From Escherichia phage phiEC1, in sequence record KY608965.1: a stretch of 64,000 nucleotides of DNA; one strand, given 5' to 3'. Numbering within the stretch: the first letter of the stretch is position 1; each line of letters starts with the position of its first letter. Shown here piece after piece: positions 22,535 through 42,314 of the stretch. The notes under the pieces were generated by a model, which saw only the letters and a list, made by a program, of their open reading frames with translations, had not been told where the DNA came from and ran no database searches. Made by a program: the position numbers and the translations under genes.

Positions 22535-23005
22535 TTAATCATGTTTCCACACCCCGTTGGTATTTGACCAAAGTCGCTGATTATCTGATCCTCGCCACAA
22601 CTTTTTGGTCGGAAGATTTTTCTCATACTTACCATCAATAATAACATCAACATATTTAAGCATTTCTAGTTGTTTAATATCTTCAAACTTATATCCTGTC
22701 CACAACCAAATGCTTTTATTGGGATAAAGATTTTTAATAGTTTGTACCACAGAGTGAATCACGTCTCTGTTATCAGGATAAAGAGGGTCACCTCCAGTTA
22801 TAGTTAATCCTTCTATATAATCATTATTCAAACATTCAATTAATTGTTCTAGTGTTTCACCAGTGAATTGAATACCATTTCTAGCATTCCATGTTGATTT
22901 ATTATAACACCCTTCGCATTTATGCAAACAACCTGTAACGAAAAGAACGACCCTGCAACCAGGGCCATTCACAAAATCGCAAGGATAAAATCTATCATAA
23001 TTCAT
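22535..23005 (-). CDS. nrdG: anaerobic ribonucleotide reductase activating protein NrdG (radical SAM)
   Basis: CLHKCEGC cluster motif, 156 aa. Confidence 0.95.
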   Translation of the reverse strand: MNYDRFYPCDFVNGPGCRVVLFVTGCLHKCEGCYNKSTWNARNGIQFTGETLEQLIECLNNDYIEGLTITGGDPLYPDNRDVIHSVVQTIKNLYPNKSIWLWTGYKFEDIKQLEMLKYVDVIIDGKYEKNLPTKKLWRGSDNQRLWSNTNGVWKHD

Positions 23006-24819
23006 TGGTGTTTAACCCTATGCATTATTTCTTTATTTTTACCGAGATTAAATCCGCGTTCGTTCGGATTTCCCAGGTAGCCGCATGTTCTTCTTATTGT
23101 GTTCATCTTTTTAGGATCAGTTTCTCCACAAACTGAACAAACAAATCCGTTTTCAGTCGGAGTCATTTCATGGGTACTTCCACATGTAAAACATTTATCT
23201 ACTGGCATATTAACACCAAAATAATCTAAATGTTGTGCAGCATAATCCCATACAGCCTCAAGACCTTTTAGGTTATTTTTCATATCAGGAAGTTCAACAT
23301 AAGAAATGTGACCACCTGTCGCAATGAAATGATACGGCGCTTCACGAGAAATCTTTTCAAACGGAGTAATATTTTCTTCTACTGAAACATGGAAACTATT
23401 AGTGTACCAGCCTTTATCGGTAACATCTTTTACGCTTCCATATTTTTCAGTATCAAGTTTACAGAAGCGATAACAAAGGTTTTCAGCAGGAGTAGAATAT
23501 AAACTAAAAGCAAATCCAGTTCTTTCGGTCCACTGTTTAAGATGAGCATTCATTTTAGTTAAAATTTCTTGTCCAATATCACGACCAACAAGAATATTCA
23601 ATTCATGAATACCAATGTATCCTAAAGACACTGAACTTCTACCGTTTTTAAATAACTCAATTATATCGTCGTCAGGTTTAAGACGAACCCCGAATGCACC
23701 TTCTTGGTAAAGAATAGGAGCTACAGTTGCTTTAACACCCTTTAAAGAACTAATTCTACACATCAAGGCTTCAAAACACAGATCCATTCGTTCATTAAAT
23801 AGCTCAACAAATTTCTGTTCATTGAACTGTGTTCCAATATAAGAATCTAATGCAATGCGAGGAAGATTCAATGTTACAACACCGAGATTATTACGTCCAT
23901 CAAGAATTTCATTACCAGTCGAATCTTTCCATACGCTCAAGAAACTACGGCAACCCATTGGAGAAACTGGAACTGAAGAACCGGTAATAGCTTTATTATT
24001 CTTAACAGAAATAATGTCAGGATACATTCTTTTGCTTGCACACTCTAGAGCGAGTTGCTTAATATCATAGTTCGGATCGTCTTTATAAAGATTAACACCC
24101 TCTTCAACAAACATAACAAGTTTAGGAAAAATAGGAGTTATTCCATCACGACCAAGTCCTTTAATGCGGTTTTTAAGAATTGCCTTCTGAATCATTCGTT
24201 CGGTCCAATCGGTTCCTGTTCCAAATGTTATAGTAACAAAAGGAGTTTGACCGTTTGAACTAAAAAGAGTATTTACTTCATATTCATAAGCTTGGAATGC
24301 ATCGTATACGTCTTTTTCTGTTTTAGATTGAGCATAATTCAACGCATCAGCGATTTGCCATTTTTCTGCATCCTCAATATGTTTTGCATAGGTGCGTTTA
24401 ACATAAGGAGAAAGAACTTTATCGACATTAGCAAATGTAGTTCCGCCGTATTGATGGGAAGCAACTTGTGCAGTAATTTGTGCCATAATTGCAGTAGCAA
24501 CACCAATCGATTTAGGCGTTTCGATTTGAGCATTGCCTAATTTAAAACCATTCTCAAGCATCCCCTTTAAATCGACTAAACAGCAATTAGTAAATGGAAG
24601 AGCAGGAGAATAATCAATATCATGCATGTGAATGATTCCACTTTCATGCGCATTCATAATAAAAGACGGGACCATATTTTTGGCAATGTGCTTAGACACA
24701 ATACCAGCCATAAGGTCCCGTTGAGTTGGAAAAACACGAGAATCTTTATTAGCATTCTCGTTCAAAAGATCTTTATTAGTTTTATAAATTAATCCTTCAA
24801 TTTCTTTTTCAATTTTCAT
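23002..24819 (-). CDS. nrdD: anaerobic ribonucleoside-triphosphate reductase NrdD
   Basis: 605 aa; C-terminal glycyl-radical RRTCGYLG and Zn-ribbon CxxC...CxxC; uninterrupted. Confidence 0.97.
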   Translation of the reverse strand: MKIEKEIEGLIYKTNKDLLNENANKDSRVFPTQRDLMAGIVSKHIAKNMVPSFIMNAHESGIIHMHDIDYSPALPFTNCCLVDLKGMLENGFKLGNAQIETPKSIGVATAIMAQITAQVASHQYGGTTFANVDKVLSPYVKRTYAKHIEDAEKWQIADALNYAQSKTEKDVYDAFQAYEYEVNTLFSSNGQTPFVTITFGTGTDWTERMIQKAILKNRIKGLGRDGITPIFPKLVMFVEEGVNLYKDDPNYDIKQLALECASKRMYPDIISVKNNKAITGSSVPVSPMGCRSFLSVWKDSTGNEILDGRNNLGVVTLNLPRIALDSYIGTQFNEQKFVELFNERMDLCFEALMCRISSLKGVKATVAPILYQEGAFGVRLKPDDDIIELFKNGRSSVSLGYIGIHELNILVGRDIGQEILTKMNAHLKQWTERTGFAFSLYSTPAENLCYRFCKLDTEKYGSVKDVTDKGWYTNSFHVSVEENITPFEKISREAPYHFIATGGHISYVELPDMKNNLKGLEAVWDYAAQHLDYFGVNMPVDKCFTCGSTHEMTPTENGFVCSVCGETDPKKMNTIRRTCGYLGNPNERGFNLGKNKEIMHRVKHQ

Positions 24820-39524: not shown

Positions 39525-39790
39525 TAGTATTTTTCCTCAGGTCGAAATACTGCACGACAGGCCCACATGCTGGCTTCTTTTAGATGTTGCTTAGCATACT
39601 TAAGAGCCTGCACTGCATCCATATCTTCTTTGGTTTGTTGCTCTGTTTCATTTTCTTTCAAGATATATGCTTCTTCAATCAGAGCATCAAACAGCAATCC
39701 AAGACGGACTTCTGCATCTTTAATAGCGTTCACTTTACCGATTTTATCGTCGGTATGCGGCTTGTAGCCTTTGATGTCTTCAATCGACAT
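39524..39790 (-). CDS. hypothetical protein
   Basis: Track ORF trimmed to MSIEDIKGYK... Confidence 0.4.
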   Translation of the reverse strand: MSIEDIKGYKPHTDDKIGKVNAIKDAEVRLGLLFDALIEEAYILKENETEQQTKEDMDAVQALKYAKQHLKEASMWACRAVFRPEEKY

Positions 39791-40004
39791 AAGGAATTTC
39801 CTCATCGGTGGCAAGGTCATATTCGACCAATTGGATAGGCTCATTAATACCATATCCACGTACAGTGATATCAGTTGTCGGATAGCTTCCAGTAATATCA
39901 CCCATTCTAAATGCTTCAATGAATGATTGCTCGCCTGAGCAACTAAACCAGGCGGCAAAACATTTTAAAACATCTTCAGAACCTTCAATAATTATTTTAG
40001 CCAT
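39780..40004 (-). CDS. hypothetical protein
   Basis: 74-aa ORF. Confidence 0.45.
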   Translation of the reverse strand: MAKIIIEGSEDVLKCFAAWFSCSGEQSFIEAFRMGDITGSYPTTDITVRGYGINEPIQLVEYDLATDEEIPYVD

Positions 40005-40366
40005 TATAGACTCTCAGTAAAGGTACGAGCGATAACGTCGCGCTGCTGTTCCGGAGTCAGAGAGTTAAAGCGAACTGCATAACCGGATACACGGACGGTC
40101 AGCTGTGGATATTTTTCCGGATGCTTAACTGCATCTTCCAGAGTTTCGCGACGCAGAACGTTAACGTTCAGGTGTTGACCACCTTCAATTTTAACTTTAG
40201 GTTGATGTTCAATTTCAATTTCACGGGCATTCAAACCGTAGAAAATTTCCGGGTCTACAATAGCGTCTTCTTTAAAAGTCTTAGAGACAATAATCCGGGC
40301 TTGAGTACCATCTTCAAAATAAATAGTGCCTTTATGTGCACCTTCAAGAATTTGATATGCTTTCAT
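40004..40366 (-). CDS. autonomous glycyl-radical cofactor (GrcA/YfiD-like)
   Basis: C-terminus [62 protein letters not shown] carries the RVSGYAV glycyl-radical signature. Confidence 0.85.
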
Positions 40367-40372
40367 ATAACC

Positions 40373-40681
40373 TCAATTAGAAAATAAATTTATCCAAGTT
40401 TTTTCTTTAATCAAAAATGGGTCGGAATTAAACGCCATTAAACTTTGAGTGATTAATCCCTTAAATGGCCCATCAATAAATTCCATTTTGAAATGTGGAA
40501 TACTAGTCATCAACCGCGCATTAGGAGCAGTACAAAGAACCTGCTGCCCTGAGAACGGACCTTTAGTCAAACGATATCGTTTAGGTTTAAAATGGTAAAT
40601 CTCGTAATTTTCTACAAGAGCCCTTTTATTGCATACTGGGCTGTTATAACAATATTCAAAAACTTCAATAGTGGTCATCAT
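40373..40681 (-). CDS. hypothetical protein
   Basis: 102-aa ORF. Confidence 0.45.
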   Translation of the reverse strand: MMTTIEVFEYCYNSPVCNKRALVENYEIYHFKPKRYRLTKGPFSGQQVLCTAPNARLMTSIPHFKMEFIDGPFKGLITQSLMAFNSDPFLIKEKTWINLFSN

Positions 40682-41360: not shown

Positions 41361-41392
41361 ATTTAAATGTAAATAGGCCTATACTTAGGCCT
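41361..41392 (-). terminator. putative terminator
   Basis: AGGCCU-n6-AGGCCU hairpin after ipIII-like stop, U-rich tail. Confidence 0.45.
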
Positions 41393-41394
41393 TA

Positions 41395-41973
41395 TTAATT
41401 ACCACGGGCTGCATTAGCAACGGCGTAAGCGTACTGAACATTAGCGTCTTTAAACGTACCTTTAGAGGTATCTATTTCTGCCTTAAAGCCGCCTTTAGCC
41501 ATAACATCAGCAAATTCTTTACGGAAAGCCATTGCGTCAAGACCTTTCCATGATGATTTATGCTTGGCAAATTCAAGACCTGCGAAGTTGACAGCTTTAG
41601 CCAATTTATTATCAATGACCCATTTACCTGCTTTAGGCACAAACTTCGGGCCTTTTTGTTTAGAGAACAGTTTTAAATTCCAGCGACGAAGGTCACTGTC
41701 GGCTTTAACAAAAGCTGCGTCTAAGTTACTAGCAACAACATCTTCAATATGAGCAAATTTAAGACCATCAACTTCAATATTTAGATCGTTACGCCAGCGA
41801 AGTCCTTCCCAAGCGAAGGCTTTAAAGTCGGAAGCCTTTGTAGCTAAGTACCGTTCAATAGGAGCAGTTTTAGGGTCAAAGCCGTTTCCGCCACGATAAT
41901 TCCACTCGTCCTTATTAATGCCTTGAGCTTTTCCTGCAAAGGCCTCGGCGATAAATTCTTTATATGTTTTCAT
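41395..41973 (-). CDS. ipIII: internal protein III-like (capsid-targeted)
   Basis: N-terminal MKTYKEFIAEA capsid-targeting leader; 192 aa. Confidence 0.7.
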   Translation of the reverse strand: MKTYKEFIAEAFAGKAQGINKDEWNYRGGNGFDPKTAPIERYLATKASDFKAFAWEGLRWRNDLNIEVDGLKFAHIEDVVASNLDAAFVKADSDLRRWNLKLFSKQKGPKFVPKAGKWVIDNKLAKAVNFAGLEFAKHKSSWKGLDAMAFRKEFADVMAKGGFKAEIDTSKGTFKDANVQYAYAVANAARGN

Positions 41974-41999: not shown

Positions 42000-42314
42000 T
42001 TATTCTTTAGGGAAGTTTTTAGAGTATGCGTCATAAAGTTTATTACCGATGCGACGGAAGACTTTAGCTGCAAAACGGTTTTCAGGGTTTTTAATCATGA
42101 TTTGCATCATGTAAGTTCCTGCATCCGAAAGAGCTTCTTCATAGTACCCATTAATTTCTTTAAGAGTCCTACGTTTACCACCAGGACCATCAACAGTAAT
42201 TTTCCATTTACCTGTAGAAGTGCGGCTCGGTGGCTCAACTTGTTCAATCCAAATATAACCACCTTCAACGCGTTGGTTGGCGGATTCTGCAATAAATTCT
42301 TTATACGTTTTCAT
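42000..42314 (-). CDS. ipII: internal protein II-like (capsid-targeted)
   Basis: MKTYKEFIAES leader; 104 aa. Confidence 0.65.
   Translation of the reverse strand: MKTYKEFIAESANQRVEGGYIWIEQVEPPSRTSTGKWKITVDGPGGKRRTLKEINGYYEEALSDAGTYMMQIMIKNPENRFAAKVFRRIGNKLYDAYSKNFPKE

Follow-up and report, generated by a model that had tools for sequence, protein, structure and literature searches.

Pyruvate formate-lyase (PFL) is cleaved by oxygen at G734, and small spare-part proteins reactivate the cleaved enzyme (PMC13450708; PMC8683613). Two spare-part proteins, YfiD and Y06I, have been validated experimentally; both are activated by the PFL activating enzyme (PFL-AE) and bind cleaved PFL (PMC8683613). 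Both also restore activity to oxygen-cleaved PFL (Wagner et al. 2001, described in PMC8683613). The PFL activase takes the 7-mer peptide RVSGYAV as a substrate but not RVCGYLG, and the N-terminus of the E. coli protein, GrcA, is disordered and less constrained and aids radical installation (PMC13450708). Y06I is the product of phage T4 gene vs.6, one of the 11 uncharacterised T4 ORFs that are conserved in five additional T4-like genomes; all six of the six orthologs match the Gly_radical family, and a role in nucleotide metabolism has been speculated for them (PMC1524935). A phage-encoded GrcA is thus already known, both from the biochemistry of Wagner et al. 2001 on Y06I, which places it in the literature since 2001, and from RefSeq, where the vs.6 products of RB69 and T4 carry the product name "autonomous glycyl radical cofactor GrcA".

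We analysed a 64,000-nucleotide stretch of the genome of Escherichia phage phiEC1 (KY608965.1), referred to here as the window. Judged by its nucleotide sequence, the window is that of an RB69-like T-even phage (Mosigvirus). The 1.8 kb around vs.6 show 97% nucleotide identity to RB69 and its relatives, and a megablast search with this 1.8 kb region matched 858 phage records. The vs.6 gene itself lies on the minus strand at 40004..40366 and encodes 120 amino acids plus a stop from an ATG start, an assignment based on the open reading frame list, Pfam, PDB entry 6OWR, PHROG 1209 and synteny with RB69. It is located between vs.7 (40373..40681, minus strand) and vs.5 (39780..40004, minus strand), both taken from the open reading frame list, within the regB-denV early/middle cluster. 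This position is conserved with RB69 and T4, and the order vs.8, vs.7, vs.6, vs.5, vs.4, regB is common to the three phages.

A GAGG Shine-Dalgarno sequence, read from the sequence at 40371..40374 (minus strand), 5-8 nt upstream of the vs.6 start, shares bases with the stop codon of vs.7, the next gene upstream, and from this arrangement we infer translational coupling of vs.7 and vs.6. At the other end the TAA of vs.6 overlaps the ATG of vs.5 in the sequence TAATG. A promoter scan near vs.6 gave promoter-like sites at chance level, and a terminator scan gave none adjoining the gene. Terminator-like sites in the vs.6 region as a whole were commoner than in shuffled sequence (9 observed, 2.5 in shuffles). 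One perfect 7-bp GC-rich hairpin (AGGCCTAAGTATAGGCCT) at 41375..41392, with T-rich tails on both strands, sits in the 178-nt gap that leads from vs.8 to an internal-protein-like gene and looks like a bidirectional terminator.

Several neighbouring genes can also be described. Two genes downstream of vs.6, vs.4 (39527..39793, minus strand) matches the Pfam family Acb2_Tad1_hairpin (PF24729) at 1.4e-17 and corresponds to the cyclic-nucleotide sponge of the T4 Vs.4/Acb2 type, an anti-CBASS protein; the open reading frame finder had placed its start too far upstream, at a TTG at 39958, and the RB69 annotation gives a protein of 88 amino acids. Two open reading frames on the minus strand, at 41395..41973 (192 amino acids) and 42000..42314 (104 amino acids), both start with MKTYKEFIAE, which is reminiscent of the sequence that targets T4 internal proteins to the capsid. 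Pfam matched neither of them, and RB69 has internal head proteins annotated hereabouts.

The vs.6 product of the window was compared with protein families and solved structures. Residues 60-101 match the Pfam family Gly_radical (PF01228) at 1.3e-18, with 67.9 bits against a cut-off of 22.2 bits, and phrog_1209 covers residues 1-120 at 2e-62. The top match among solved structures is E. coli GrcA (6OWR, E=2.8e-42), followed by residues 696-759 of E. coli PflB (E=4e-26), where approximately 48 of 64 residues are identical as counted from the printed alignment. The best-scoring NCBIfam family is TIGR04365 (spare_glycyl, E=1.6e-46); the score of 157.7 bits falls approximately 12 bits short of its equivalog cut-off of 170 because the N-terminus has diverged. 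The protein is free-standing at approximately 14 kDa and combines a C-terminal radical domain resembling that of PflB, an RVSGYAV loop and a GrcA-type N-terminus, which are the features of a GrcA-type spare part. The loop occupies residues 92-98 (40073..40093, minus strand) and is identical in translation to the loop of PflB and GrcA, with the radical glycine, G95, encoded at 40082..40084 (minus strand).

The two closest phage proteins are the Vs.6 of RB69 (NP_861810) and T4 Y06I (NP_049730). The RB69 protein has the same neighbours and is identical at 117 of 120 residues, with approximately 98.6% nucleotide identity; it differs from the window at A35S, V69I and V91I (window to RB69). T4 Y06I also has 120 amino acids and the same position between vs.5 and vs.7, and is identical at 111 of 120 residues in a codon-level alignment. 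Seven of its nine substitutions relative to the window are in the N-terminal half, where the genes share 90% of their nucleotides. Residue 73 is H in T4 and R in the others; residue 91 is V in the window and I in T4, RB69 and E. coli. E. coli GrcA/YfiD (P68066, PDB 6OWR) shares with these proteins an N-terminal region, a glycyl radical domain of approximately 60 amino acids and the RVSGYAV loop, but its gene sits beside ung while vs.6 sits in the early/middle cluster of the phage. The C-terminal glycyl radical domain of PflB (residues 696-759; PDB 1H16) is the domain that Vs.6 mimics; unlike PflB, Vs.6 is free-standing at 14 kDa and has neither the ten-stranded barrel nor the catalytic cysteines.

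These comparisons agree with the first-pass annotation of the gene as a GrcA/YfiD-like spare part, which had proposed alignment to E. coli GrcA and T4 Y06I and inspection of the radical glycine as a check; the protein is a Y06I ortholog and G95 is present. The impression that its last 60 residues are essentially those of the enterobacterial protein also holds, since 59 of the 60 are identical to E. coli K-12 GrcA and the sole difference is I to V at residue 91, a resemblance well outside what chance would give. The peptide quoted in that annotation corresponds to residues 92-120. The suggested role in the rescue of PFL has been demonstrated biochemically for the ortholog Y06I, according to PMC8683613, and is extended to the present protein by orthology. 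We are confident that the open reading frame is T4 gene vs.6 (Y06I) in its RB69-type allele, that it encodes a 14-kDa PFL spare part whose mechanism is assigned by orthology, and that its codons 61-117 were recently overwritten from the host.

The two halves of vs.6 relate to the host gene in very different ways. Codons 1-60 (40187..40366, minus strand) encode a diverged GrcA-type N-terminal region of phage-like composition, with a third-position GC content (GC3) of 0.22; they share 47% of nucleotides and 18 of 60 amino acids with E. coli grcA. Scanned by themselves, the first 60 residues hit no NCBIfam model, and Pfam reports nothing there. Homology was nevertheless found in a profile comparison by hhalign of 14 phage N-terminal halves with 17 host GrcA N-terminal halves, which gave a probability of 97.3%, E=2.1e-11 and 28% identity, collinear over 60 columns. 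Landmarks common to phage and host include a (G/A)IQI start, ARxIv-K, ED..V and RE..(I/V)E..P.V. The N-terminal half of the window protein is approximately 28-30% identical to that of GrcA and 7 residues shorter. The earlier view that the N-terminal 60 residues are phage-specific was therefore half right: they have diverged, but they are a collinear homolog of the GrcA N-terminus, and the hhalign result rules out a novel phage-specific domain.

The remainder of the gene, excepting its last codons, is almost identical to host DNA. In codons 61-117 (40016..40186, minus strand), which encode the glycyl radical domain, 169 of 171 nucleotides are those of E. coli K-12 grcA, and 55 of the 56 codons that specify the same residue are identical. 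The two differences are G to A at 40106, which is synonymous (P87), and A to G at 40096, which changes I to V at residue 91. At the 5' edge of this patch identity steps from 47% to 99% within one codon. At its 3' edge the last three codons, GAG AGT CTA, which together with the TAA stop occupy 40004..40015 (minus strand), match the GAA AGC CTG of E. coli at only 6 of 9 nucleotides and are identical to those of RB16 and RB69. The last 60 codons have 50% GC and a GC3 of 0.42, against 37% GC for the window and the GC3 of 0.22 in codons 1-60. In T4 the last 60 codons of vs.6 are identical to E. coli grcA at 176 of 180 nucleotides, and its patch is of the same E. coli type.

A patch of this kind could in principle be produced without any separate recombination, if the whole gene were a recent capture of host grcA and its 3' half had simply diverged more slowly under constraint. 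The C-terminal domain is indeed extremely conserved in protein across phage and host homologs, the N-terminal halves are homologous, and the disorder and weaker constraint described for the GrcA N-terminus (PMC13450708) would allow faster change there. The decisive evidence comes from synonymous sites. RB16, which is also an E. coli phage, encodes the same 57 residues, yet only 144 of its 171 nucleotides and 32 of its 57 codons are identical to E. coli grcA; with 27 nucleotide differences in RB16 for the same residues, and 2 in the window, protein constraint does not explain the match. Constraint on codons 61-117 is likewise contradicted by Matisse, CfP1 and the T5-like phages, and with at least 27 synonymous differences in RB16 and others the identity is not a product of constraint. 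Both edges of the patch are sharp, with the step inside a single codon at one end and RB16-type codons at the other, and GC3 jumps within the gene. In addition, one type of N-terminal half is common to six Straboviridae genera whose 3' halves vary widely in nucleotide sequence. We regard recent capture of the whole gene as highly improbable.

The reading we prefer is that vs.6 is an old phage gene in which codons 61-117 were recently overwritten by E. coli grcA through homologous patch recombination, from host to phage. The first-pass annotation had proposed recent capture from the host, and this stands for the internal 171-nt patch only; the gene itself is an old and conserved ORF of the T4 family, present in all five of the additional T4-like genomes compared in PMC1524935 and, by tblastn, with homologs in 1588 phage records that include T5-like and jumbo phages. 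As far as alignment of nucleotides can establish it, the comparisons show vs.6 to be of mosaic origin. A search of the accessible literature did not find the vs.6/grcA nucleotide patch, or its recurrence in other phages, described.

The donor and the direction of transfer were examined with host genomes. For the same stretch of grcA, E. coli is 82.5% identical to Salmonella and 91.8% identical to Citrobacter, and the 5' half of the gene diverges similarly. The stretch is thus native to Escherichia and the transfer ran from host to phage; the opposite direction was rejected on this ground together with the host-like GC3 of the region. In a neighbour-joining analysis of the patch, the group made up of E. 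coli, Escherichia sp., T4, RB69 and the window received a bootstrap value of 98.7%. We also considered pflB and tdcE as donors and rejected them, since grcA is the best E. coli match in all 5426 genomes searched and the tdcE match is shown at 75%; the closest host DNA to vs.6 is grcA and not pflB or tdcE. The best E. coli match to the phage patch among the 5426 genomes is 97.3% over 183 nt. None of these genomes carries an allele identical to the phage patch and none beats K-12, so the two differences in the patch are attributed to mutation in the phage.

When phage records are ordered by their identity to the final 180 nt of E. coli grcA, the distribution is bimodal, with 635 records at 95% or above, 11 at 90-95% and 857 below 90%. 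The E. coli-type patch occurs in Tequatrovirus and Mosigvirus, where 169-170 of 171 nucleotides are identical. No difference from E. coli K-12 within the patch is common to T4, RB69 and the window, and one synonymous site in the patch varies within each of the two phage clades and also among the hosts. Other blocks of 100% identity between T4 and the window occur near vs.6. Separate acquisition of the patch by T4-type and RB69-type phages and its exchange between them both fit the data.

Residue 91 (40094..40096, minus strand), which immediately precedes the RVSGYAV loop, is Val in the window and Ile in E. coli GrcA, PflB, T4, RB69 and all other phage homologs in the panels examined; the cause is a single A to G change within the host-type patch.

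A second patch was found in phages of the genus Jiaodavirus. In PSE-D1 (a Salmonella phage, 301-663) and KP182 (a Klebsiella phage, 301-663) GC3 rises from 0.23-0.25 to 0.60-0.63 inside vs.6. A 32-mer from the Jiaodavirus patch was located on 31 metagenome stretches, mostly host-type grcA (N-terminus MITGIQITKAANDD...), on contigs from the gut of up to 620 kb and 57% GC. The metagenome grcA allele matches PSE-D1 at 166 of 171 nucleotides and KP182 at 160 of 171, and here too identity is bounded by codon 61 on one side and the last three codons on the other. Bootstrap support for the grouping of Jiaodavirus with this allele is moderate at 67%. The contigs are closest to loci of Klebsiella sp. 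and Raoultella, with 82% identity over 1.6 kb. The donor is likely to belong to the K. pneumoniae complex, where the label "Klebsiella-like" reflects the 57% GC and the 82% identity, K. pneumoniae being absent from the 80 loci of the genome scan.

Other groups of phages have vs.6 without a patch. These comprise Pseudotevenvirus, Slopekvirus, Karamvirus, Krischvirus, and the T5-like, jumbo and Aeromonas phages, in which 110-156 of 171 nucleotides match the best host. The lineages of RB16, Matisse, Karamvirus, the T5-like phages and the jumbo phages would represent fully ameliorated versions. The occurrence of two patches with the same boundaries and from different hosts suggests recurrent conversion from host to phage. 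We consider the chances about even that T-even phages repeatedly overwrite the half of vs.6 that encodes the radical domain with the grcA allele of their current host, through homologous recombination limited to the conserved block, which would keep that part matched to the PflB and PflA of the host.

Some residues in this domain also follow the host. Phages of E. coli and Citrobacter have LEDAVKH, as in E. coli GrcA, while Klebsiella phages of two genera have LLDAVEH, as in Klebsiella and Raoultella GrcA. In the panel of Matisse, RB16, CfP1 and KP182 these variants go with the host also in cases where the nucleotide sequence departs from it, which suggests selection to match the PFL system of the host.

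A comparable pattern of intragenic recombination is reported for cyanophages (Zeidner 2005; Sullivan 2006), where psbA, an auxiliary metabolic gene that phages have long carried, has segments replaced by host alleles that appear as patches in GC content and at synonymous sites. The gene, the hosts and the phage subgroup differ from those of vs.6. If recurrent conversion is true, vs.6 would be the coliphage counterpart of this exchange of psbA, and possibly a marker of recent host history.

The partner of the spare part in the infected cell is a separate question. The first-pass annotation had allowed for rescue of either PFL or the phage class III ribonucleotide reductase, NrdD, and oxygen likewise cuts NrdD at the radical glycine. 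The window encodes both nrdD (23002..24819, minus strand; Pfam NRDD at 2.6e-171 plus Gly_radical) and its radical-SAM activase nrdG (22535..23005, minus strand; Pfam Fer4_12 at 1.4e-48 plus Radical_SAM), so that Vs.6 might receive its radical from phage NrdG and stand in for the C-terminus that NrdD loses to oxygen. The role in nucleotide metabolism speculated in PMC1524935 would agree with this, as would the position of vs.6 in Aeromonas phages 65 and Ah1, between nrdG and nrdC. The sequences of the two proteins argue otherwise. BLASTP of Vs.6 against the NrdD of the window gave E=4.9 with an alignment off the glycine site. The NrdD loop is RTCGYLG and follows a Cys-rich CxxC segment, and Vs.6 has neither the loop nor the segment; its radical domain is approximately 75% identical to the C-terminus of PflB and 98% identical to GrcA. 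Activase specificity follows the sequence of the glycine loop, and the PFL activase refuses the NrdD-like peptide RVCGYLG (PMC13450708). With a different loop and no similarity outside chance, rescue of the phage NrdD is extremely unlikely, and that part of the earlier proposal is abandoned.

Vs.6 could instead interfere with its partner, acting as a decoy that soaks up PflA or occupies PflB and so redirects or shuts down host fermentation. It carries the exact recognition loop of PflA, its near-identity to GrcA would allow competition for PflA and PflB, and the gene lies among early/middle genes of host takeover, of which regB and vs.4 (anti-CBASS) are examples. Set against this, T4 Y06I restored the activity of cleaved PFL in vitro as YfiD did (described in PMC8683613), and the radical glycine is conserved together with the entire docking surface, both having even been refreshed from a host allele, as expected of a functional part. 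We consider a decoy very unlikely.

Repair of PFL is the reading that we develop here. By orthology with T4 Y06I and E. coli GrcA, host PflA, a radical SAM enzyme, would remove a hydrogen atom from G95 within the RVSGYAV loop. The C-terminal domain, now carrying the radical, would then dock on a PflB molecule whose own radical domain oxygen had removed at G734, and the docked protein would restore the breakdown of pyruvate into acetyl-CoA and formate. The counterpart of the GrcA N-terminus, which in GrcA promotes installation of the radical, would be the diverged N-terminal half. In those open reading frame lists of the window that were examined no pflA homolog was seen, and nrdG is the sole glycyl-radical activase identified in them; Vs.6 would thus depend on host PflA.

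The benefit to the phage would probably be that fermentative acetyl-CoA, ATP and formate are kept up in a gut host exposed to small amounts or pulses of oxygen. Formate derived from PFL could also feed the phage NrdD. The E. coli-type class III reductase uses formate as its reductant (Mulliez et al. 1995, cited in PMC13450708), and the formate-dependent class III enzyme is discussed as a consumer of formate (PMC13450708). In the window vs.6 lies 15 kb from nrdD and nrdG. In Aeromonas phages 65 (260-622) and Ah1 (301-684) it lies directly between nrdG and nrdC (thioredoxin), and this synteny hints at a functional tie of the PFL spare part to anaerobic nucleotide reduction.

The corrected picture is one in which Vs.6 would repair PflB/TdcE-type enzymes and not NrdD, and the link through formate to the anaerobic ribonucleotide reductase of the phage is a testable hypothesis for why gut phages retain vs.6. 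The sharply bounded 171-nt patch, together with the Klebsiella-type patch, provides a clean and easily testable example of ongoing host-to-phage gene conversion in lytic T-even phages. T-even phages degrade the DNA of their host, and the patches could record recent host use.
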